Assembly (NCBI GenBank): GCA_964361405.1
Contig: CAYIAA010000005.1
Location: 1-46,610, forward strand
Direction: 5' to 3'
Length of the DNA: 46,610 bases
Source: an uncultured Candidatus Saccharibacteria bacterium
GTDB lineage: Bacteria > Patescibacteriota > Minisyncoccia > Phycocordibacterales > UBA3531
Position 1 is the stretch's first letter; each line of letters starts with the position of its first letter. The notes below the pieces were generated by a model. That model was not told the DNA's origin, did no database searches, and saw only the letters and a list, made by a program, of their open reading frames with translations. The translations under genes were made by a program, and so were the position numbers. Positions 32,781 to 46,530 of the stretch are shown here, piece by piece.

Positions 32781-32788
32781 TTTATCTA

Positions 32789-33174
32789 TGGAGATGGCGG
32801 GAATCGAACCCGCGTCCAGTAAGGAAACAAACGCAGATCTACGAGCGTAGCGCGTTTTTGTGTTTTAAGCCGAAGCGTTATGAAGCGCGCAAAATGCGAA
32901 TCAGCCGAGTCTCATTGTTTCTGGTAAGCCAGGAGACACCGGTTCACCATACTCTCACTGTTATGACGCCTCGATGCGCCCCCGGAGAGTCGGGGCACGG
33001 AGACGGCATCCGAAACGCTTACGCGATTGCGAATGCTGGGGCAAAGGGGGACAAAACCCTCTTTGCTACCTTTGATACGTTTGCACGTATATGTTTCTAG
33101 CGTTTTTAACGAGCTAGCTAGAATCCTCGACCCGCGTGCGAAAGAATCGCTCACTGTCAAAGCCGATCATCCCC
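32789..33174 (-). ncRNA. ssrA: tmRNA (SsrA)
   Basis: The 5' end reads GGGGATGATCGGCTTTGACAG. The 3' end, GGACGCGGGTTCGATTCCCGCCATCTCCA, forms an acceptor stem with a G3:U pair. CCA is not encoded. The predicted tag ORF at 33084-33019 starts at GCA and gives ANVSKVAKRVLSPFAPAFAIA*. The gene sits directly downstream of smpB. Confidence 0.9.
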
Positions 33175-33717: not shown

Positions 33718-35640
33718 ATGGATGTGAAACCATTCAAGAAAAAGCGCAATCAAAACGATCGCAGGCAGTTCGTGAACCACATCGGGACAGCGCTTCTGGT
33801 GTTTGTCCTTATCGCCCTTGCATATAGCTCGCTCCAATCTATCGCCCCCGGCGAGGAGGTGAAGGAGGTATCGCTTTCTGAACTTGCAACCTCGATTGAG
33901 ACGGGCAAGGTAAGGGAGATTATTGTCGAGGGAAATTCGATTTCGATTGAGCTTTCCGATGGAATGAAGCAAACGTCGCGAAAAGGCTCCGAAGTGGACA
34001 TTACGGAGTCGCTCGTCAATCTGGGAGTTTCTTCGGAGAAACTCCGTGCGATTTCAATCAGGGCGCAGAGTCCGTCGGGCTTTGTGACGTGGATTATTCC
34101 GATCCTCTCCATCTTTGCTCCAATTATTTTTATCCTTTTTCTCTTTTGGATACTCTCAAAGCAGGTCAAGGGCTCGGCGATGCAGGCTTTTACCTTTGGT
34201 CAGTCAAAGGCACGTATTATTAATCCCTCGGATTCTCATCAGCGGGTGACGTTTCGGGATGTTGCAGGATCAAAAGAAGCCAAGGAGGAGTTGCAGGAAA
34301 TCGTTGATTTCCTGAAAAATCCGAAGAAATTTATTGAGATTGGCGCGCGAATCCCGAAGGGCGTGCTCCTCATGGGCGCGCCCGGAACGGGGAAAACGCT
34401 TCTTGCACGCGCGGTTGCGGGCGAGGCGAACGTGCCATTCTTCTATCTTTCCGGTTCGGAGTTCGTGGAGATGTTTGTGGGCGTCGGGGCTTCGCGCGTG
34501 CGTGATCTTTTCAAAATGGCAAAGAAAGCCGCTCCGGCAATCATATTCATTGACGAGATAGATGCCGTTGGGCGTCATCGCGGATCCGGAATGGGAGGCG
34601 GGCATGACGAACGTGAGCAGACCTTAAACCAAATCTTAGTTGAAATGGACGGTTTTGAGCCCAATCAAAAGGTAATCGTGATGGCGGCGACGAATCGTCC
34701 CGACGTGCTTGATACAGCACTTCTTCGTCCTGGCCGTTTCGACAGGAGAGTGGTAATTGACCTCCCAGATATTAGAGAACGGGAGGAAATTCTAAAAATT
34801 CACTCGGAGAAAAAAGTTCTCGGGGAAGATGTTAATTTACATGTAATAGCAGAGCGGACGCCGGGATTCTCTGGCGCGGACCTTGCGAACTTAATAAACG
34901 AAGGAGCAATACTTGCAGCTCGGGAAAACCGTAAGCAGGTGGCGCAATTTGATTTTATCAGAAGTGTAGAGAAGGTCATGATGGGTCCCGAACGAAAGTC
35001 AAGAATTATAACTCAGGAAGAGAAAAAAATAACTGCATTCCATGAAGCGGGGCATGCGCTCATAGCGTCAATACTCCCGCACTCTGATCCAGTACATAAA
35101 GTGACGATTATTTCACGCGGAATGGCGGGCGGATATACTCTTAAACTCCCGCTCGAGGAAAGGCGGCTTCATTCACGCAAACAATTTTTAGATGATATTG
35201 CAGTTGCCTTGGGGGGCTATGCAGCGGAAGATATAGTATTTAACGATATTACAACGGGTGGTTCAAATGATATTGCTGTAGCTACAGCGCTTGCGCGCGA
35301 CATGGTAACGAAATATGGAATGTCTGATGCTATAGGTCCGATAGCATTTGAAGAAGGCGGAACGCCTATTTATACAGGAGGCAGAATTGTTTCAGGCGAA
35401 AATGCATACTCGGAAGAAGTGTCTTCGCGAATAGACCGAGAGGTTTCCGACATTATGACCACGGCGCTTAAGCGCGCTCGCGAGGTAATAGAAAAGCATC
35501 GAAAAGTGCTTGATCATATTGCTGGAGAACTCGAGCGTGTTGAGACGATTGAACGTGAAGCGTTCGAAAAACTCCTTGTCGTAAACGGTATCAAGCCAAA
35601 GCGAAAAAACGAAGGCGAGGGGATTGTCGTTCAAGACTAA
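33718..35640 (+). CDS. ftsH: ATP-dependent zinc metalloprotease FtsH
   Basis: [28 protein letters not shown] and HEAGHAL. The start is placed at the Met at 33718 (MDVKPFKKK). Confidence 0.96.
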
Positions 35641-35657
35641 ACTTCCTAAAAGTTTAA

Positions 35658-35690
35658 CCCCCACTTGGAAGCTTCGCTTCCAAGTGGGGG
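35658..35690 (+). terminator. Long hairpin after ftsH containing the 23-nt palindrome ACTTGGAAGCTTCGCTTCCAAGT
   Basis: CCCCCACTTGGAAGC-TTC-GCTTCCAAGTGGGGG. The downstream T tract is weak (TTGTGAG). The core is repeated at 38205-38227. Confidence 0.5.
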
Positions 35691-35819
35691 TTGTGAGACG
35701 CTCTCGCGTCCATCCGCGCGAGGGCGAGATGTGATCACCTCCTTTTCTAAACTGTCTTTATTATCCCAAGCCCAATAGCTCTGTCAATCAACCAAAGTGA
35801 ACGTATGCGCTTAAACGTG

Positions 35820-35891
35820 TGCGCGTGCTAGGACTTGAACCTAGAACCGGTCGTGTATAAGACGACTGCTCTACCATTGAGCTACACGCGC
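35820..35891 (-). tRNA. tRNA-Ile with anticodon UAU
   Basis: The minus strand reads GCGCGTG-TA-GCTC-AATGGTA-GAGC-A-GTCGT-CTTATAC-ACGAC-CGGTT-CTAGG-TTCAAGT-CCTAG-CACGCGC-A. This is a clean cloverleaf with anticodon TAT at 35859-35857. CCA is not encoded. Confidence 0.85.
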
Positions 35892-38334: not shown

Positions 38335-38354
38335 CTTGCCTACCGGCAGGCAGG
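38335..38354. repeat. GGCAGGCAGG-family hairpin overlapping the stop of the hydrolase-SOD gene, preceded by the tandem repeat TTGCCTACC x2
   Basis: Read directly: GCTTGCCTACCTTGCCTACCGGCAGGCAGG. Confidence 0.75.
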
Positions 38355-39725
38355 CCGGACACGCAGACGCGACTCTATGACGTCCCAGCGGAGATTTTCA
38401 AAAAATGCGGAAACATAGTCCTTTTTTTGCGCGGGAAGGTAGTCAAAGAGATAGGCGTGTTCCCAGAGGTCGAGAGCGAGGATAACATCGGCGCCCGCAA
38501 GGTGTCCGATTTCGTGGTCGCTCACCCAGATATTGAAAAGCGCTCCCGCGCGGGCGTCTCGAGCAAGTACTACCCAGCCGATACCTCGCATTGCGGCAAG
38601 CGCGCGGAACTCGGTAAGCCATCCATCGAAGCTCCCAAATCGCTCGCCGAGCATTTCAGCAAGTCTTCCACCAGTTTTCAGACCCTCTCCGCCAAGGGCT
38701 TCAAAATAGTATTCATGCATCCGCATACCGTTCCATTCAAAAGCGAAGCGGCGGGTCAGTTCGGAGAGATCGAGCGCATGTTGTTCAGAATCTTTTTTGT
38801 ATTCCTCAATTTTTTCGCGAAGCACGTTCACATTTTTAACATAGCCCGCGTAGAGTTTCAAATGCTCGACGATGAGCTTTTCGGAAAGCCCCGAAAGCGA
38901 GGGGAGTTTGAAATCCTGTACTTGGTATTGCATAGATGTGCTTATCGATGGTGTGAGTATAGCGGGTTTATTTTGAAAAAGCATGAGCCCATCCCCTTCC
39001 ACATCGTGGAAGGGGATGGGCTCTGTATCGCCGCCGTCATCCTCTTTGATGAGGGTAGCGATGAGTCGCCAGACATCCCGGTCGGAGAAAAGGTCGACGT
39101 GACCGAGTCTCTTTTTAGGAAAGACCTGCGCGAGTCTCACATGGCGAACATTTCCCTTCCGAAGAGAGCAACGCTCTGGAGGTGCAATACCGTCGCTTCG
39201 CCTTGGCACCACGGCTGTGATGCGGTGAGGAAGCAGTTCGATCCGTTCCCGCATCTGGAAGAAAAGTTCCCGTGAAATACCTGTCGTTTTCTCGACTGCG
39301 TAGGCGAGAGATCTCTGCGGTGTGCCGAAAAGCGGGGTTCCCACGATGATGGGGTTCACCATCCTTTCCTGCAGTTCCGTTGCGAGCATGAGGAGAACGA
39401 TTGCGCCCCCGAGTGAGAATCCAATGGGTTGAATCAATTCCCCCGAATGAAACGACCTCTCAATCTGCGCTCGGATCATGGCAATCGTTGTTCGGTAGGG
39501 TCGCATGTGCCAGCCGATGTCCGCGTGATAGGCACGAATACCTTCTCCCTCAAAATACTGTCGCAGACGGTAGAGTCCGTTTGCGTGCCCGCAGAAGCCG
39601 GGGATGAGGAGAACCGGGTGTCTATGGAGATGTTTGCTCTCAAACACCTGTCGAGGGATCATCTGCTCTGCGACAAGTCCGAGAAACGGCCGAACTTCCG
39701 AGAGAAGTCCTGGACGAGTAGCCAT
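38340..39725 (-). CDS. Fusion protein: N-terminal alpha/beta-hydrolase (lipase/esterase-like) plus C-terminal Fe/Mn superoxide dismutase-like domain
   Basis: N-terminal half: PVLLIPGF, a GFSLGG nucleophile elbow, and later SDG and GHVD. C-terminal half aligns with Fe/Mn SOD: LPSL...VEH, NGMRMHEYYF, DLWEHAYLFDY and NLRWDVIESR. All four canonical metal-ligand positions (H, H, D, H) are present. Confidence 0.85.
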   Translation of the reverse strand: MATRPGLLSEVRPFLGLVAEQMIPRQVFESKHLHRHPVLLIPGFCGHANGLYRLRQYFEGEGIRAYHADIGWHMRPYRTTIAMIRAQIERSFHSGELIQPIGFSLGGAIVLLMLATELQERMVNPIIVGTPLFGTPQRSLAYAVEKTTGISRELFFQMRERIELLPHRITAVVPRRSDGIAPPERCSLRKGNVRHVRLAQVFPKKRLGHVDLFSDRDVWRLIATLIKEDDGGDTEPIPFHDVEGDGLMLFQNKPAILTPSISTSMQYQVQDFKLPSLSGLSEKLIVEHLKLYAGYVKNVNVLREKIEEYKKDSEQHALDLSELTRRFAFEWNGMRMHEYYFEALGGEGLKTGGRLAEMLGERFGSFDGWLTEFRALAAMRGIGWVVLARDARAGALFNIWVSDHEIGHLAGADVILALDLWEHAYLFDYLPAQKKDYVSAFFENLRWDVIESRLRVRPACR

Positions 39726-39829
39726 TTTTTGGTCTCCCTTTATTGTCTGGTAGAGCGAACTTCTACTCTCTACGCTAGTTTAACCAAGAGGTGCCGTCAA
39801 TCTCACTTATGCACCTCTCGCGACTTATG

Positions 39830-40036
39830 CTAAGACGCTTTGTATCCAAGCTCGGCGATATTTTTCTTGATAGCGTCGAGCGAGGTTTTTCCCGGATCGA
39901 ATTCGAACGTGCCTTTTTTGCCGTTGTAGTCTACGAAAACGCTTGAAACCCCGTCCATCTGCGACGTGAGCATCTGTATCCCCGTCGCGCATGCTCCACA
40001 ATGCATTCCCTCGATGTGCAGTTCTACTTTCTCCAT
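39830..40036 (-). CDS. copZ: Copper chaperone CopZ-like heavy-metal-associated domain protein
   Basis: 68 aa with GMHCGACA (MxCxxC). Confidence 0.9.
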   Translation of the reverse strand: MEKVELHIEGMHCGACATGIQMLTSQMDGVSSVFVDYNGKKGTFEFDPGKTSLDAIKKNIAELGYKAS

Positions 40037-40054
40037 AGTGTTACTGTTATTTTA

Positions 40055-40402
40055 TTACGCTTTAGTGTACACGGATTCAATTTTTTTTGCCAAAATAAAA
40101 TCATTCTCCGATAACCCTCCAATCGCGTGCGTCCATAGTTCGACGACCACCTTTCCCCACGAGAGCGCAAGGTTTGGGTGGTGTCCTTCGCTCTCCGCGA
40201 TCTCCCCGATCTGGTTTACGAAGGAGAGTCCGGTAGCAAAATCCAGGAATATGAATTGCCGCAGAAGTTTTTTTCCGTCCCCGCTATCCTCGGTAACCTT
40301 CCACGCGGGGTCAATCTCTCGCGCGAGTTCTAGAATCGCGTCTGTGCCAAGTGGTGGCATCCCCGCCTCGCACGGCACGCACTTTTTTTCTTCAAGACTC
40401 AA
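40055..40402 (-). CDS. Pterin-4-alpha-carbinolamine dehydratase (PCD/DCoH) family protein
   Basis: CVPCEAGMPPL, FxxAxxFxNxIGEIAExEGHHP and WTHAIGGLSENDFILA. Confidence 0.85.
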   Translation of the reverse strand: MSLEEKKCVPCEAGMPPLGTDAILELAREIDPAWKVTEDSGDGKKLLRQFIFLDFATGLSFVNQIGEIAESEGHHPNLALSWGKVVVELWTHAIGGLSENDFILAKKIESVYTKA

Positions 40403-40409
40403 GAAAATA

Positions 40410-42911
40410 TTACTCTTTTGCCGCAGTCCGCTCGATCGGCGGCGTGTAGCGCTTGAGGAGAAGAGAGTTTAATACGACGGAGACGGAGCTGAATGCCATT
40501 GCGAACCCGGCAATCTCGGGACGGAGTGTTGCTTGTGAGAAATTATAGAAGATTCTTCCCGCGCCTCCGAGTGCGCCCCGCAGGGAAACGACCCACTCTG
40601 CCGGGACTCCGAGGGAGCTTTGTGTGACGAGAAGGTGGATGCCGCCAGCGATGGGGATCGCGACGACATTATAGACGAATGCCCAAAAGAGATTCTGCCA
40701 GACTTTTTTGATGGTTTTTCCGGAGAGCTGGATCGCGGTCACGACGTCACGGAGGTCGTCTTTCACGAGAATGACTTCTCCGGTTTCAATGGCGACATCG
40801 GTGCCGGAACCGATGGCAATACCAAGATCCGCCTGCGCCAAGGCCGGGGCGTCGTTGATGCCATCACCAACCATGGCGACTTTTTTCCCTTCTGACTGCA
40901 GTTTCTTGATCGCTGTTGCCTTGTCTTCCGGAAGCACTTGAGCCATGACGCGATCGATGCCGACTTCGTAGGCGATGGCATCGGCGGTTTTCTGGTTGTC
41001 GCCAGTGATCATGATGATTTCTTTACCCATTTTTTTAAGCGCCATGATTGCATCTTTTGCAAATGGTTTGATATCGTCGCGCATTGCAATGAGGGCGGTC
41101 AGCCGTTTCTTTACAGCCAGGAAGACCACGGTCTTTGCTTCACCCTGCAGGCGCTCCAGTGTACTCTGGTGTGCATTTGTATCAATGTTGAGACTTTTCA
41201 TGAACGCTTCGTTCCCGATGTGAACCTCTTCTCCTTCAACTACGGCGCGTACCCCGAAACCTGGTACTGCTTGAAACTCTTTTGGGGTGTGCACTTCGCC
41301 CTGGGCTTTCTGCTTTCTCACAATGGCATGTGCAAGTGGGTGCTCCGACCCATGCTCGGCAACAGCCGCGAGATAGGTAGCGTGCCCTTCATGCATCGCA
41401 TCGGAAACCATAAGGAAATCAGTGACAGTCGGTTCTCCCAAAGTGATAGTTCCGGTTTTGTCGAAGACAATTGATCCCACGCGGTACGCTTTCTCGAGCG
41501 CATCACCGCCCTTTAGGATAATGCCGAACTTTGTGGCGCGACCTATCCCGACGATGAGTGCGGTTGGTGTCGCAAGCCCCATAGCGCACGGGCATGAAAT
41601 CACCAGGACTGCGATCATGCGCATGAGCCCGGTGCGGAAGGGAAGTGCGCCGATGAATACCCACCCGGCGAATACGAAAATAGCGAGCACAATAACAGCA
41701 GGCACAAAATACTCACTGATTTTATCTACCAGATTTTGTATCGGAGCCTGTGAGGCTTGGGCTTCTTCCACCATCCGTACGATTTGGTTGAGCAAAGTGT
41801 CTTTCCCGACTTTTCCGGCGCGGAATTTGATGAGACCTTCTTGGTTGATCGTGGCACCGATCACCTCGTCGCCAATTTTCTTTTTCACGGGATACGATTC
41901 ACCGGTTACCACTTTCTCGTCCACATGTCCTTCTCCCTCGATGATTGTCCCGTCAACGGGGAATTTCTCGCCGGGGCGGACCACGATAATGTCGCCAACC
42001 CTAAGCGCGTCGATGGGTACCGTTTCTTCTCTCCCGTCGCGGAGGACGTGCGCTTCTTTCGCTTCGAGTTTCAGGAGTTCTTTGATCGCGGCGGATGCAC
42101 GTCCTTTCGCGACTGCCTCAAAGTAACGGCCGAGGAGAATGAATGAAAGGAGAGCGGCTGAACTTTCCCAGAACGGATGGTCAATGTTAAAGAAGAGAAA
42201 ACCGATTGCCGAATAAAAGTAAGCAGCCGAGGTGCCGAGAGCTACCAAAACATCCATATTTGCGGCTCCGACGCGGATTGCGGTGAAGGCGTTCCGGTAG
42301 AATGTCCACCCGATGACGAACTGTATTGGGGTCGAAAGAATCCAGTAAATGTAGTTGAGGTCGATCCTGAAAGGAGGATTTGAAACGTCCATGAATAGGG
42401 AAAGAGCTACTTTCAACGGTTGGGCTACGGTCCAGAAAAAGTACCTGGTGGCGTATGCACCCTGGGAGACGAAGTCTGTTCCCGAAAAAGTCGGCGCCGC
42501 GGCATTTACGAAGTCGAAAAACTCATGCACATGCGTGACATTAAACATGTGGATGAGCATGTAGTAGAGAATGATAGGCGCGGAGAGAACGAAGGATGCG
42601 ATGACCCTCCGCCGAGCGAGCATAATTTGCCGAACCTCTTTGCCTTCTTCCTCTTCTATGGTTGTTGACGCTTCATCGGGACGCACGAGATCATAGCCCA
42701 ATTTATTGATGAGTGCGTCTATCTTTGCGAGGGAGGTTTTTGACTCATCGAAATCAACTATTGTACGCTCTGCCCCGTAGCTCGTCTTGATCGCGGTGAC
42801 GCCCGGTTCCTGCCCCACTAGCTTGTCGATTAAGGTGGAACACGATGCACAGTGCATTCCTTTTACCTTGAGTGTGTAGTGTGCCACGGTGGTTTTAGTG
42901 TATGCCGACAA
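40410..42911 (-). CDS. copA: Copper-translocating P1B-type ATPase
   Basis: N-terminal HMA domain GMHCASCS, CPC motif SCPCAMGLATP, DKTGTIT, MITGDN and GDGINDAP. Confidence 0.95.
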   Translation of the reverse strand: MSAYTKTTVAHYTLKVKGMHCASCSTLIDKLVGQEPGVTAIKTSYGAERTIVDFDESKTSLAKIDALINKLGYDLVRPDEASTTIEEEEGKEVRQIMLARRRVIASFVLSAPIILYYMLIHMFNVTHVHEFFDFVNAAAPTFSGTDFVSQGAYATRYFFWTVAQPLKVALSLFMDVSNPPFRIDLNYIYWILSTPIQFVIGWTFYRNAFTAIRVGAANMDVLVALGTSAAYFYSAIGFLFFNIDHPFWESSAALLSFILLGRYFEAVAKGRASAAIKELLKLEAKEAHVLRDGREETVPIDALRVGDIIVVRPGEKFPVDGTIIEGEGHVDEKVVTGESYPVKKKIGDEVIGATINQEGLIKFRAGKVGKDTLLNQIVRMVEEAQASQAPIQNLVDKISEYFVPAVIVLAIFVFAGWVFIGALPFRTGLMRMIAVLVISCPCAMGLATPTALIVGIGRATKFGIILKGGDALEKAYRVGSIVFDKTGTITLGEPTVTDFLMVSDAMHEGHATYLAAVAEHGSEHPLAHAIVRKQKAQGEVHTPKEFQAVPGFGVRAVVEGEEVHIGNEAFMKSLNIDTNAHQSTLERLQGEAKTVVFLAVKKRLTALIAMRDDIKPFAKDAIMALKKMGKEIIMITGDNQKTADAIAYEVGIDRVMAQVLPEDKATAIKKLQSEGKKVAMVGDGINDAPALAQADLGIAIGSGTDVAIETGEVILVKDDLRDVVTAIQLSGKTIKKVWQNLFWAFVYNVVAIPIAGGIHLLVTQSSLGVPAEWVVSLRGALGGAGRIFYNFSQATLRPEIAGFAMAFSSVSVVLNSLLLKRYTPPIERTAAKE

Positions 42912-43329
42912 GCTGGTTTACCTTGATCGTGCCGATCATATCGAAGTGGTCGCGGTGTTCTCCGTCAATATCTCCCTCCCCGCAGGGGACCGAGCAATAA
43001 TACTGAAAATCTCCCGGTCTTGTTGCCACGAATTCAACCGTGACAGTGCTTTTTGCTGGCATGCGCTGGGAGATGCCGTAGGCATCGATCGCAAAACCAT
43101 GGTCATAATCGTCTTCGTTCACAACTGTGGCAATAATCCGGTCCCCTTGATTAATCACGATATCTTCCGGCTTAAAACGCCATTCATTTTTTTTGGCGAT
43201 GATTGTAACCTCGACAACTTTTCCCGTTTCAACGGGCTTCGACGATTCGGGGATGAGGAATAGCCGGTAACCGACACCGGCGAGGACAACTGTTATCCCC
43301 ACGATCAACAGAAGGATGAACTTATTCAT
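42895..43329 (-). CDS. Membrane-anchored cupredoxin, COX2/CuA-like with a variant metal-site spacing
   Basis: N-terminal TM segment, then DHGFAIDAYG...PGDFQYYCSVPCGEGDIDGEHRDHFDM, i.e. H...C-x3-C-x11-H-x2-M. Confidence 0.72.
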   Translation of the reverse strand: MNKFILLLIVGITVVLAGVGYRLFLIPESSKPVETGKVVEVTIIAKKNEWRFKPEDIVINQGDRIIATVVNEDDYDHGFAIDAYGISQRMPAKSTVTVEFVATRPGDFQYYCSVPCGEGDIDGEHRDHFDMIGTIKVNQLVGIH

Positions 43330-43332
43330 TGT

Positions 43333-44706
43333 TTATCTACGATTCAGGTACCGGTTGACTCCATAAGAGAGGAGCGCGATTAAAACGAGCGAAATCCCCG
43401 CGAGAATCCATCGTATATTCAAGACAATGCCGGCCATGGTGGTTGGTTCATCAACATGTGTCGGATCTAGAGGGTCCGTACGCGCAAATACCACGGCGGC
43501 AGCTTGTAGAGAGGGGTCTGCGGCCGTTTCTTCAAGCGTTCCGACGGGTTGGTATCCTTTGTATTGAAAAAGCATTGTCATACCTGCCGCCGCATGGTGG
43601 ATATGGTGGCAGTGAAGCGCCCACGGTCCCGGATTATTTGCATTAATGGCGATATCAAGTGTTTCGCCGGGGTTTATGGTAATCGTGTTTCGTTCCTCCC
43701 GGGCAGATTTAGAGAGAGAGAACCCATCTCGTGCGACGACGGTGAAGCTGTGCCCATGGAGATGCATGGGGTGTGAAGCGGCGGAGCCGGCATTAATGAA
43801 GCGAATGAGGATGCGTTCTCCCTGATTTACCGCGAGCGCTGGGATGTGGGGGAAGATTCTTCCGTTAATGGTGAAGGTATTGAAGTCTGGAACGGTATCC
43901 ATCATACCTGCCTGGCCGGCGCCGTGCATATGCCCCGCGGCGGTATTGATGCCGCCCATCATGATTTCCCACTCATCGAGAACAAGCGTGTAGTCCCGAT
44001 CGTAACTCTCCGCACTTTTTTTATCTTCTTTAGAAGTTTTTGCCTCAACAATGAATGCACCCGAGAGACCCATGTCGAGTTGCTGTGCCGATGTCATGTG
44101 GTCTGCCCCATGTGTGTGATAGAAACGCGTGCCAGCCGGCACTGCGTCAAACTCGTAGGTGAACTCCTCGCCGGGCCCGATGGCATCTTGTGTTATTCCT
44201 GGTACGCCGTCCTCTTGCCATGGAACATCAAGTCCGTGCCAGTGTACCGAGGTCGGTACCGGTAAATTGTTTTTGACAATGATTCGGATTTTGTCTCCTT
44301 CGGTGACGCGGATTTCCGGACCCGGAATTTGCCCGTTATATCCCCAGACGTGAACATATTGTCCTGGAGCATATTCCCATCGGAATTCCTCCGCTTCGAG
44401 ACGGAATTCCTTAACGCCGTTTACGAGCGTGGGAGAGAGGGTGGCGCGCGATGCGGGAGTTTGGATCGGAAGGCGCGCGATTTCCGCCGCGCTCGGAAGT
44501 TCGCCCATCATGGCGTCGCTCGTATCGGTGTGCATGTCATCCATACCATCCATGTGCGAATCTGTTTCTGTCAGTGCCTTAAATCGCGTCGGCAGGTAAT
44601 AGACGAAGGTAATGATGAGAAGCAGGGAAAATGCGATTAGAAATCGCAATTGCCAGTTCGGATTTGAACTTGAATTAGGGATTCCAAGAGAGCTTTCGTT
44701 CGTCAT
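43333..44706 (-). CDS. Multicopper oxidase (small, probably two-domain) with TM segments at both ends and a Met/His/Asp-rich N-terminal tract
   Basis: Copper motifs VHWHG, FYHTHG, HPMHLHGH and HCHHIHHAAAGM. N-terminal TM segment FLIAFSLLLIITFVYYL, followed by DSHMDGMDDMHTDTSDAMMG. C-terminal TM segment WILAGISLVLIALLSYGV. Confidence 0.86.
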   Translation of the reverse strand: MTNESSLGIPNSSSNPNWQLRFLIAFSLLLIITFVYYLPTRFKALTETDSHMDGMDDMHTDTSDAMMGELPSAAEIARLPIQTPASRATLSPTLVNGVKEFRLEAEEFRWEYAPGQYVHVWGYNGQIPGPEIRVTEGDKIRIIVKNNLPVPTSVHWHGLDVPWQEDGVPGITQDAIGPGEEFTYEFDAVPAGTRFYHTHGADHMTSAQQLDMGLSGAFIVEAKTSKEDKKSAESYDRDYTLVLDEWEIMMGGINTAAGHMHGAGQAGMMDTVPDFNTFTINGRIFPHIPALAVNQGERILIRFINAGSAASHPMHLHGHSFTVVARDGFSLSKSAREERNTITINPGETLDIAINANNPGPWALHCHHIHHAAAGMTMLFQYKGYQPVGTLEETAADPSLQAAAVVFARTDPLDPTHVDEPTTMAGIVLNIRWILAGISLVLIALLSYGVNRYLNRR

Positions 44707-45764
44707 ATTTTGATTTGTTTTTTCGCTCTAGTTTGTGATTGAGTACTCGCGGCTCGTTTCTTCATTTTGAAATAATACCACCAGAGCGGAATGAGCCAAA
44801 GGGAAACAAGCACCCAATTACCTAGTTCAAGCGGGAGTCCGAAGAGCCCTGTACCCGTTTCGAGTCCGTGCGCATGCGTAACCGTGCTCTCTAGCTTGCC
44901 CGCGATGAGTCCGGTAAACAGTTTCTCCTGCGTAATCTCTTCAAAGAGCGTGTGTTGGCCGGAATTCACCCACCAGTCATGCGTGAAGAGGCCTAAGACG
45001 AGAATAAATGCGGCAACAAAAACCATTCCCCATCCCGTTGCGCGCTCCACCTTGTCTTTCCTCGCGACGAGCCACGAGAGAGCGTTCACACCCAGGACGG
45101 CGAGGACTGCAAGGAGAATGAGCGGAAGAATTCTTCCCACGGCGTGTGTGAAAAAGAGGAGCCAGCCGTAGAACACGTCGCCTTCGGCCGCGATACGGGT
45201 GAGTATCACGGGAGTTGCCGGGTGAGGACAGCCGACACCGATGTTGCCGAGAAAAAGTCCCAAAAGCACGGCTTTTACATAGTCGCTCTGTTTTTGGATG
45301 AATGCAGGTGCCGCACCCGTGTATGACGGCATACGGACATTGATGAGGCCAAGTTCTCCGAGTGCGAAAAGATAGGCAAAGGCGCCGGCGATGAAGTAGA
45401 GCCAGTTTTTCACCGTCTCAAGCGGGGCGCCGAGGGAACCGATGGCATATTTCCCAAGGAGTGCGGCGGCAACGCCATAGAGAGAGAGAGTAAACGCGAC
45501 ACCGATACCGAATGAAAGCGCGATGGAGAGTCCTTTACCTAGCCCTTTTCCCATTGAGAGTGGAACAATAACAAAGGCGAGCGGGAGTGTGCAGGGAAGG
45601 ACAATCATCGTAAGTCCCGTTGCAAAGGAGAAAAGATACCATCCGAAGCCGACAGGAGTTTCGGGCCCGAGGAAAATAAACCAGCTAATCCCAAGAGCGA
45701 TAACTATTGCGATGGCAATCGCTACAACCACCACAACCTTCTTCATATCTTTCCTCGTTTCCAT
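44703..45764 (-). CDS. CcdA/DsbD-family polytopic membrane protein (transmembrane thiol-disulfide electron transfer)
   Basis: Multi-TM protein with two membrane-embedded Cys-Pro motifs (LPCTLPL and GVGCPHP). An ATGA overlap with the oxidase gene. The family assignment rests on motifs only. Confidence 0.55.
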   Translation of the reverse strand: METRKDMKKVVVVVAIAIAIVIALGISWFIFLGPETPVGFGWYLFSFATGLTMIVLPCTLPLAFVIVPLSMGKGLGKGLSIALSFGIGVAFTLSLYGVAAALLGKYAIGSLGAPLETVKNWLYFIAGAFAYLFALGELGLINVRMPSYTGAAPAFIQKQSDYVKAVLLGLFLGNIGVGCPHPATPVILTRIAAEGDVFYGWLLFFTHAVGRILPLILLAVLAVLGVNALSWLVARKDKVERATGWGMVFVAAFILVLGLFTHDWWVNSGQHTLFEEITQEKLFTGLIAGKLESTVTHAHGLETGTGLFGLPLELGNWVLVSLWLIPLWWYYFKMKKRAASTQSQTRAKKQIKI

Positions 45765-45780
45765 TTAGTTTGGCGAATTT

Positions 45781-46179
45781 TTACTTTCTGTACGCGATTG
45801 CGGTGAGTGCGAGACCTGCACCCAAAAGCCCTAAGTCTCTGAAGGTGTAATAATCTATGCCCGTAAGCACCAAAATGAAGAACATTTCAACAGTGATAAA
45901 TGCCGCGAGAGGCTGAAGAATTTTTTTCGGCAGGAACCAGGTGAGAAGAAGTACCGCGAGAATAAGCTCTCCGACACCTTGTACTTTGAGAAAAGTATTT
46001 ACCCCGATAGTTTCATTGACAAATGTTGAGAAAAAATCTGGCAGATTCACAAGGGCTTGATTAATGGCCCAGTGCCATGCTGTTGGGTTTTTTACGAGAT
46101 CGATGCCGGAGAAAATGTAGGTTGCCGCAAGTCCTACGCGAAGAGGAGCTTCCGGCTTCATGTGTGATATGAGTCTCAT
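45781..46179 (-). CDS. DoxX-like small membrane protein
   Basis: 132 aa and 4-TM like (RVGLAATYIFSGIDL..., GELILAVLLLTWF). The assignment is tentative. Confidence 0.45.
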   Translation of the reverse strand: MRLISHMKPEAPLRVGLAATYIFSGIDLVKNPTAWHWAINQALVNLPDFFSTFVNETIGVNTFLKVQGVGELILAVLLLTWFLPKKILQPLAAFITVEMFFILVLTGIDYYTFRDLGLLGAGLALTAIAYRK

Positions 46180-46188
46180 GGGATTAAA

Positions 46189-46455
46189 TTATGGGTTAGT
46201 AAGGCGCTTGAGCTCTTCGACGAATTTATCCTTATCGAATCCTCCGGTGGCCCAGAGTTCGCCGTTAATAATAATTCCCGGGGATGCGAAGATCATGTGT
46301 TTCCCTGCAAGTGCTTGTCCTTCGGGAGTAGTGACGGAGATGTCGCGGACGGTGACACTCGGCCATTTCATTTTTTCTGTTTCCCAGAATTCCATGAAGC
46401 GTCGGCAGTGTGCACATCCGGGAGACGTGACGACGTCAACTCGGATTTGATTCAT
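46189..46455 (-). CDS. Thioredoxin-fold protein (glutaredoxin-like, CxxC)
   Basis: 88 aa with VVTSPGCAHCRRF, then SPGIIINGEL. Confidence 0.8.
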   Translation of the reverse strand: MNQIRVDVVTSPGCAHCRRFMEFWETEKMKWPSVTVRDISVTTPEGQALAGKHMIFASPGIIINGELWATGGFDKDKFVEELKRLTNP

Positions 46456-46461
46456 ACATAC

Positions 46462-46467
46462 AGTATA
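46462..46467 (-). promoter_or_regulatory. TATACT -10 box 6 nt upstream of the Trx-like ATG (leaderless geometry; probable start of the copper/thiol operon)
   Basis: The minus strand reads TATACT-GTATGT-ATG. Confidence 0.4.
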
Positions 46468-46507: not shown

Positions 46508-46530
46508 AAACCCCGACATTGTCGGGGTTT
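46508..46530 (-). terminator. Hairpin terminator of the upstream partial gene
   Basis: AAACCCCGAC-ATT-GTCGGGGTTT. On the minus strand it is followed by TGCG after the U-rich stem end. Confidence 0.5.

Follow-up and report, generated by a model that had tools for sequence, protein, structure and literature searches.

A probable envelope copper-handling cassette joined to a thioredoxin–CcdA pathway in Parcubacteria-type Patescibacteria

The subject of this work is a stretch of 46,610 nucleotides (positions 1 to 46,610 of contig CAYIAA010000005.1, assembly GCA_964361405.1; hereafter the window) from an uncultured Candidatus Saccharibacteria bacterium of the Patescibacteriota, and in particular a cluster on its minus strand in which genes for copper export, a multicopper oxidase (MCO), a cupredoxin, a thioredoxin (Trx)-like protein and membrane proteins of the CcdA and DoxX types follow one another. 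We consider it fairly probable that the core of this cluster is a self-contained envelope copper-handling cassette, typical of Parcubacteria-type Patescibacteria, in which a relay leading from Trx to CcdA keeps the cupredoxin reduced. A reading of the same DNA made from its letters only (the sequence-only reading) had listed nine co-directional minus-strand open reading frames (ORFs), all of which were recovered in place. Its Trx-like, CcdA, MCO, CuA-like cupredoxin, CopA, pterin-4a-carbinolamine dehydratase (PCD) and CopZ assignments were supported by profile searches.

One genome per species was scanned with an alignment of the CcdA-like protein, which yielded 80 loci, and the ORFs of these loci were searched with the proteins of the window. 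Nearly all of the loci belong to metagenome-assembled genomes of Parcubacteria-type Patescibacteria, the exceptions being one Binatia bin, one Verrucomicrobiia bin and three archaea. The recurrent order of genes is Trx, DoxX, CcdA, a variable outer copper domain, cupredoxin, CopA and CopZ. A Trx homologue adjoins CcdA in 70 of the 80 loci (35 of the 37 that have enough flanking sequence and were counted separately), while the cupredoxin is found in 63 (34 of the 37), CopA in 57 (32), DoxX in 53 (24) and CopZ in 47 (29). The outer slot is filled in 59 loci, by a His-rich domain in 46 (22 of the well-flanked ones) or by a genuine MCO in 13 (6). PCD was met in a single locus, which is one of the 37, and neither the superoxide dismutase (SOD) nor the hydrolase-like gene of the window was found in any locus of either set. 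A search for a conserved regulator or any additional recurrent gene found none, as no other gene family recurs in more than 6 loci. With its core conserved in 80 other genomes, the cluster goes far beyond a chance association. The proposal of a functional tie between Trx, DoxX and CcdA on one side and CopA/CopZ, the cupredoxin and the oxidase on the other is thus borne out by their co-occurrence in most of the loci and by fusions in some of them; of the larger gene set proposed at the same time, the seven-part core recurs and the SOD, hydrolase and PCD genes do not.

The fusions concern the membrane and outer components. About 11 loci have CcdA and MCO in a single uninterrupted ORF with a substantial MCO match, and in four more the match to MCO is partial. 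Fusions of DoxX to CcdA number three in the survey of 80 loci. L079-L081 and P0054 encode a triple fusion of DoxX, CcdA and the His-rich domain, and P0069 a DoxX-CcdA fusion. In the window itself the stop codon of CcdA overlaps the start codon of the MCO (ATGA, -4 nt). Archaeal loci (L082-L084, Hydrothermarchaeales and Aenigmatarchaeota) contain a reduced set composed of CcdA-like, Trx-like, CopZ and CopA genes, to which L084 adds two cupredoxins; the thiol relay and copper export are thus linked outside Patescibacteria as well. In one relative (L001:3327-3662) the Trx-like and DoxX-like genes are separated by an inserted gene whose product carries a 23S rRNA intervening-sequence protein domain.

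CopA, a P1B-1 ATPase (40410-42911, 833 aa when counted from a TTG start), matches TIGR01525 (E 1.6e-193) and TIGR01511 (E 4.7e-180, 600 bits with a cut-off of 397), and its motifs are intact: CASC21 in the HMA domain, CPC440, DKTGT484, YN747 and MAFSS805. Compared with the A. fulgidus CopA it carries an insertion of about 28 residues, HLLVTQSSLGVPAEWVVSLRGALGGAGR, at residues ~759-786 (40410-40640 region of the window), in the outer loop that connects the YN helix with the MxxSS helix; the insertion is common to about 42 of 50 cassette CopAs. Co-variation of its length with that of the ligand loop of the cupredoxin was rejected, no correlation being found. The CopZ-type Cu(I) chaperone (39830-40036, 68 aa) consists of a single HMA domain with the motif CGAC13 and matches both HMA (E 5.7e-13) and CopZ models (E 1e-12).

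The two-domain MCO (43333-44706, 457 aa) matches the Pfam families Cu-oxidase_3 (E 3e-39) and Cu-oxidase_2 (E 2e-32) and has all four copper-binding motifs, HWHG155, YHTH196, HPMHLH312 and HCHHIHHAAAGM365, the fourth of which reads HCHHIHHAAAGM. In PDB it is closest to two solved two-domain MCOs, 3g5w (E 1e-46) and 2zwn (E 4e-44). As had been proposed, the protein is doubly anchored, since hydrophobic segments lie near both of its ends (residues 20-38 and 427-445); it also carries a Met/His-rich linker. Identification as the copper nitrite reductase NirK was rejected (80 bits with the NirK model against a cut-off of 296) because the sole Cys lies in the C-terminal domain, within the HCH motif, and none of the four MCO motifs is missing.

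The His-rich domain that takes the place of the MCO in the majority of the loci is about 400 aa long and Cys-free, and has a His/Met-rich linker, two repeats of the form MHxxxxxxDLxxFxHxHP (e.g., L001:5232-6488) and no oxidase motifs. Searches of Pfam, NCBIfam and PDB gave no family match and no significant structure match for it. The possibility of a degenerate pair of cupredoxins found no support, as the profile of the domain gave just a weak match to a CuA domain in PDB (E 0.19), and no relation was detected to the cupredoxin of the cassette, with which hhalign aligned only the transmembrane (TM) helix (prob 0.5). The first ~60 residues of the window MCO (the TM helix and the Met/His-rich linker) share homology with the corresponding region of the His-rich-domain proteins, which suggests a fixed scaffold with two TM anchors and, between them, a slot whose outer domain can be exchanged. 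In some loci the slot or a neighbouring position contains no more than a small anchored protein rich in His or Met (L050:2390-2779, L064:9696-10190, L018:11043-11462), one example being MKMDDMMSAMMG...HDMMHIMMGRM.

The membrane-anchored cupredoxin (42895-43329, 144 aa) matches Cupredoxin_1 (E 2.9e-8) and the CuA-domain region of NosZ (E 1.8e-11). In PDB it matches nitrosocyanin (E 6e-9), CuA domains and NosZ, and no CupA structure was among the matches at E<=0.01. Its ligand motif reads H77-x34-C112-x3-C116-x11-H128-x2-M131. In the family as a whole the His/Cys/Cys/His ligands are invariant, following the pattern DHG...x34...CSVPCGEG...H-x2-(M/Q), and some relatives have the exact CuA spacing C-x3-C-x3-H-x2-Q. 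In the window protein the H-x34-C-x3-C part is exact, whereas x11 rather than x3 precedes H-x2-M, which amounts to an eight-residue insertion in the ligand loop. The axial Met is replaced by Gln in many relatives.

Three proteins would constitute the thiol relay. The Trx-like protein (46189-46455, 88 aa, motif CAHC) matches Thioredoxin_3 above its gathering score (E 7.6e-6) and the MJ0307-type thioredoxin model (E 1e-6), and it has neither a TM segment nor a signal peptide; CxxC is present in the homologues examined. It is a small cytoplasmic protein of the thioredoxin fold and a candidate electron donor to CcdA. The CcdA-like thiol-disulfide transporter (44703-45764, 353 aa) passed the profile search, with a DsbD_TM match above the cut-off (E 1.3e-9, 38.1 bits against 27.1). 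It comprises the membrane domain only, with one additional TM helix at each terminus and a conserved outer loop that is rich in His. There are exactly two Cys in it, C58 (LPCTLP) and C179 (GVGCPHP), 100% conserved in 76 sequences and placed one in each inverted repeat, in P-C and G-C-P motifs respectively. In the same 76 sequences H207, H262, H271, H297 and H299 are each at least 96% conserved; H207 lies in a TM helix and the other four in the long loop that joins the last two TM helices. From the distribution of charges along the sequence this loop is predicted to be outside the membrane, and the His cluster may be a copper-binding site. To our knowledge, canonical CcdA proteins are not known for a conserved outer His cluster.

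The third member, a DoxX-like protein with four TM segments (45781-46179, 132 aa, no Cys), was less accessible to the searches. No match to Pfam or NCBIfam was obtained directly even at E<=10, and six close homologues only were found. A profile built from these six sequences and searched against 1.84 billion representative proteins retrieved 189 proteins at E<=1e-3; 117 of them were aligned, and 74 match Pfam DoxX (PF07681), 46 MauE (PF07291) and 8 DoxD. Because the intermediate profile reaches proteins that Pfam classifies as DoxX or MauE, the 132-aa protein is assigned, by this route only, as a divergent and remote member of the DoxX/MauE superfamily; the DoxX call of the sequence-only reading thus stands by way of an intermediate and has no direct match behind it. 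In the AlphaFold2 (AF2) model (pLDDT 78) the top PDB fold match found by Foldseek is NACHO/TMEM35A (prob 0.99, TM 0.63, with a weak E of 0.24). We take NACHO to be a DoxX-family protein; no paper stating so was found. The 117-sequence profile gave noise only, mainly 14-3-3 proteins, against PDB sequences.

In the mechanism that we propose, cytoplasmic CopZ would hand Cu(I) to CopA, which would export it, as the motifs and the knowledge of both families suggest. Outside, the anchored cupredoxin with its CuA-type His/Cys/Cys/His/Met site would receive or buffer the copper, and the doubly tethered two-domain MCO would oxidise Cu(I) to Cu(II) with O2, by analogy to the CueO-type cuprous oxidases; in most relatives the slot of the MCO is occupied by the non-oxidase His-rich domain. 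Reductant would pass from the cytoplasmic Trx-like CxxC protein through the two membrane Cys of CcdA to the C-x3-C pair of the cupredoxin, which would be held reduced, and the relay would also oppose copper-catalysed thiol oxidation. With one Cys in the MCO and none in the DoxX-like protein, the C-x3-C pair is the only exported Cys pair of the cassette, and for this reason it is the most likely target of the relay. The DoxX/MauE-like protein may, judging by the fusions, be an accessory membrane subunit of the CcdA unit. The relay as drawn here is suggested by synteny, by the fusions and by the precedents of TlpA/CoxB and Scs/DsbD. In TlpA/Sco systems the reduction of the CuA cysteines is an established assembly step: the C-x3-C site must be reduced before copper binding, and the electrons come via CcdA/DsbD. 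Copper-linked DsbD/ScsB pathways are likewise established (PMC10907172, PMC3322552), and in N. viennensis MCOs and a gene of the DsbD family show a common response to copper (PMC7785015).

Several points weigh against such a scheme. Canonical CcdA pathways (ResA, TlpA, CcmG) use an exported Trx-fold partner; the cluster encodes none, and we know of no precedent for direct transfer from CcdA to a cupredoxin. DoxX went undetected in about a third of the well-flanked loci and is thus not obligatory. The axial Gln found in relatives of the cupredoxin is no less compatible with a redox centre than with a Cu(I) chaperone, and the topology assumed for this protein follows from a hydrophobic N-terminal segment and a weak charge bias. 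At the level of sequence, moreover, detoxification and the supply of cuproproteins cannot be told apart.

Comparison with known systems places the cassette among the copper-tolerance operons. It shares with the Cue-type CopA/CopZ and cuprous oxidase systems a P1B-1 ATPase with CPC, YN and MxxSS, an HMA chaperone and an extracytoplasmic MCO with a Met/His-rich segment. In contrast to these systems, its MCO is a two-domain protein, TM-anchored at both ends and coupled or fused to a CcdA-like protein; the relatives mostly swap the oxidase for the His-rich domain, and no CueR-, CsoR- or CopY-type regulator recurs. In Scs/DsbD copper tolerance (PMC10907172, PMC3322552), as in the cassette, a DsbD-family transporter is tied to copper stress and thioredoxin reductant is directed to the envelope. 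The cassette, however, has neither an exported Trx-fold partner equivalent to ScsC/ScsD nor a periplasmic DsbD alpha or gamma domain; it encodes a cytoplasmic Trx, adds the DoxX/MauE-like subunit and the outer His cluster, and is joined to CopA/CopZ. The anchored cupredoxin has the same C-x3-C site as the cytochrome oxidase subunit II that TlpA/Sco reduces, but the cluster contains no oxidase subunit I, Sco or PCuAC, and the cupredoxin stands alone beside CopA and has an eight-residue insertion in its ligand loop. The S. pneumoniae CupA-CopA pair (PMC5646241) similarly has an anchored copper protein of the cupredoxin fold encoded directly upstream of copA. The ligands of the cassette cupredoxin are nevertheless CuA-like (2 His, 2 Cys, Met/Gln), and while CupA faces the cytoplasm, the link to CcdA argues for an outside location of the cassette protein.

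Among the other explanations that we weighed, the one that fares best sees in the cassette a route for cuproprotein maturation or supply, in which CopA/CopZ, Trx/CcdA and the cupredoxin would serve to provide the outer oxidase or His-rich domain with its copper; the substrate of that domain would then be something other than Cu(I), e.g., Fe(II), phenols or a host-derived compound. The known requirement for reduced CuA cysteines before metallation agrees with this idea, as do the retention of the cassette in very small genomes of many lineages and the dependence of MCO maturation on the CopA pathway in R. capsulatus (PMC8456105). On the other hand, the outer domain is variable, and a short anchored His/Met-rich peptide, which is often what is found there, is easier to reconcile with copper binding than with one particular enzymatic role; the Met/His-rich linker of the MCO, for its part, is typical of cuprous oxidases (PMC11494321). 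We therefore regard the supply of a cuproprotein as an unlikely primary role.

The same proteins might also form an electron conduit, leading from thioredoxin to CcdA, then to the Cys pair or CuA centre of the cupredoxin, possibly through copper bound to the His loop of CcdA, and finally to the MCO, where O2 would be reduced to water. The cassette would in that case be an O2-consuming or redox-balancing device independent of a respiratory chain, and CopA/CopZ would mainly metallate it. The invariance of the CuA ligands and their exact spacing in some relatives speak for this possibility, together with the CcdA-MCO fusions and ATGA coupling, the conserved His cluster on the outer face of CcdA and the Met/Gln variation at the axial position, which is typical of tuned redox centres. 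A cupredoxin-based electron path was earlier proposed for the Parcubacterial 'nirK', which Danczak et al. (2017) described together with a cupredoxin (PMC5581439). Those genes, compared here by their description, resemble ours in combining a two-domain copper protein with a cupredoxin in genomes without a respiratory chain, but the window protein has four MCO motifs and its type-1 Cys is C-terminal. What makes the conduit improbable is that a genuine MCO is present in just 13 of the 80 loci, as against 46 with the Cys-free His-rich domain that has no oxidase motifs, that the CcdA chemistry is a two-electron thiol-disulfide exchange with protein Cys, whose hand-off to copper centres is without precedent, and that CopA has the architecture of a detoxification pump, with an N-terminal HMA domain and a cognate CopZ. 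We consider still less probable the more specific proposal of a minimal transmembrane redox machine, in which electrons from Trx would travel via CcdA/DoxX to the CcdA His cluster, then to the cupredoxin and to O2 at the MCO. Were it true, Patescibacteria without a respiratory chain could consume O2 or dump reductant at the cell surface, and the DoxX family would gain its first defined role, as the partner of a CcdA-type transporter.

The sequence-only reading had favoured a broader arrangement that also included the genes downstream of copA. PCD (40055-40402, minus strand, 115 aa) is a clear member of its family (Pterin_4a E 1e-27, 96.4 bits against a cut-off of 26) with the full catalytic motif E-x3-HHP-x5-W-x9-H-x8-D starting at residue 70. 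It occupies the same slot, between copA and copZ, only in the close relatives L003/L004 and in the distant L029 (L029:13346-13684). In other cases it lies at a different place of the genome. As a component of the cassette it was rejected: besides its single occurrence among the CcdA loci, a survey of 80 loci with PCD homologues met a nearby copper or SOD gene in only 4. In L090:1296-1983 a PCD homologue comes directly after a cupredoxin, and in L151:1366-2515 another stands before a canonical SOD; bacterial PCD carries an N-terminal CVPC motif.

Beyond copZ the window has a 461-aa ORF (38340-39725, minus strand) that joins a hydrolase-like part (38934-39725) and a SOD-like part (38340-38933) in a single frame. 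The hydrolase-like part has a GFSLG motif and a sub-threshold match to Abhydrolase_1 (E 0.019); no match was found in PDB or NCBIfam, the AF2 model has a pLDDT of 30.6, and the one borderline hydrophobic stretch, around GFSLG, is read as a buried core. The closest relatives (L003, L004 and L087) retain the order copZ, hydrolase-like gene, SOD and recG. In close relatives, however, the hydrolase-like protein (286 aa in L003/L004) and the SOD are encoded by separate overlapping ORFs, and their in-frame joining in the window is due to four nucleotides of indels at 38934-38965. The hydrolase-SOD fusion that had been described is accordingly real as a frame of the window, but it dissolves into two ORFs in close relatives, with the hydrolase assignment below threshold.

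The SOD-like protein (197 aa from an internal ATG at 38933) matches Sod_Fe_C (E 1.9e-20, 73.3 bits against a cut-off of 20.9), falls below the gathering score of Sod_Fe_N (E 1.3e-4, 22.8 bits against 27), and its PDB matches are SODs down to E 2e-27. All homologues share the start region MxYxxxxF-LPxL, which matches the internal ATG, and no TM segment or signal peptide was found in the protein. Where canonical SODs have HxxxHHxxYV this family has HLxLYxGYV, i.e., a one-residue deletion in the first ligand helix, and the second-sphere His residues are missing. Of the metal ligands, the second His (MRMH), the Asp and the last His (DLWEH) align, and the first His is kept only if the deletion is placed within the HxxxHH helix (HLK-LY). 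The family is reminiscent of the divergent SodFM4 type described for the candidate phyla radiation (PMC10172142). The protein is a divergent cytoplasmic SOD-like protein of the Fe/Mn type, probably expressed from its own start. Homologues at ~43-52% identity adjoin ribosomal, peptidase or response-regulator genes.

Between the two parts of the 461-aa ORF lies a terminator-like hairpin (38985-39023, minus strand), a perfect stem of 18 bp with a 3-nt loop followed by a U-run (fold z-score -7.8). Its arms differ in L003/L004 at several paired positions yet remain fully complementary through compensatory changes, and the arm is not a repeated element within the window. A second perfect hairpin (35656-35692, 17 bp with a 3-nt loop) follows an ORF ending at 35640, which suggests that this style of hairpin is the usual form of terminator in the genome. 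If the hairpin at 38985-39023 terminates transcription, the hydrolase-like message would carry no stop codon.

An integrated module coupling Cu(I) oxidation, removal of O2 and superoxide, and thiol repair, with DoxX and SOD acting as in the DoxX-SodA-SseA complex of Mycobacterium tuberculosis, could appeal to the physiological link between copper and superoxide stress, to the adjacency of the SOD-like gene in the closest relatives and to the documented complex itself (PMC6930017), but it is very improbable and largely refuted by co-occurrence, given the lack of SOD and hydrolase genes in all 80 loci, the unrelated neighbourhoods of the SOD homologues, the SOD-like protein having no TM segment or signal peptide, the 104-nt gap and covarying hairpin that set the units apart, the lack of a rhodanese or sulfurtransferase in the cluster and the fusion of DoxX to CcdA and never to SOD. 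The mycobacterial complex had been named correctly, and its likeness to the window consists in a DoxX-superfamily protein and an Fe/Mn-type SOD encoded in one genome stretch; the analogy goes no further, as the window has no sulfurtransferase and DoxX is partnered by, and tracks with, CcdA rather than SOD. As the SOD is not a component of the module, the superoxide-removal limb falls away. The hydrolase-like and SOD-like genes, like that for PCD, are lineage-specific neighbours of the cassette and do not belong to it.

From Trx to the 461-aa ORF the intergenic gaps are 9, 16, -4 (the ATGA overlap), 3, -17, 7, 18 and 104 nt, so that the first eight genes, Trx to CopZ, are spaced by no more than 18 nt throughout; recG lies 175 nt beyond the 461-aa ORF. 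Of the two overlaps noted earlier, that of CcdA and MCO holds, and the 17-nt overlap of the cupredoxin with CopA is contingent on the TTG start of the latter. An in-frame GTG at 42887, eight codons downstream, would leave a 7-nt gap and a typical HMA N-terminus. The hexamer TATACT (46462-46467, minus strand) that had been taken for a promoter is present 6 nt upstream of the Trx ATG and is preceded by a hairpin with a T-run (46511-46527, tail to 46503) belonging to the upstream gene. The scan for consensus promoters and terminators was at chance overall, with 10 promoter signals against 6.6 +/- 2.6 expected, and did not pick the hexamer up. We regard TATACT as a candidate -10 box of a leaderless transcript, which is a reading and not a result, and a single operon starting from it is plausible. 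An Rfam search of the cluster gave no match. A full-length tmRNA gene (32786-33174, 133 bits) and a tRNA gene (35820-35891), both on the minus strand, sit just downstream of the recG region.

In the searchable literature we found no paper combining DoxX, CcdA and copper and no description of the cassette in Patescibacteria. The cassette is a variant of known copper-tolerance operons joined to the DsbD-family reductant pathway, and its undescribed features are the DoxX-CcdA and CcdA-MCO fusions, the CcdA subfamily with the His cluster, the stand-alone CuA-like cupredoxin and the uncharacterised His-rich domain. The keeping of a seven-gene cassette in the tiny genomes of many lineages of Patescibacteria implies that the handling of copper at the cell surface is important for these bacteria. 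The DoxX-CcdA fusions provide a concrete partner for the poorly understood DoxX/MauE family, and the fusions point to a CcdA pathway that operates without the usual exported thioredoxin-like acceptor. The cassette is, in addition, a means of reassessing those copper proteins of Patescibacteria that were earlier read as a nitrite reductase and its electron carrier.

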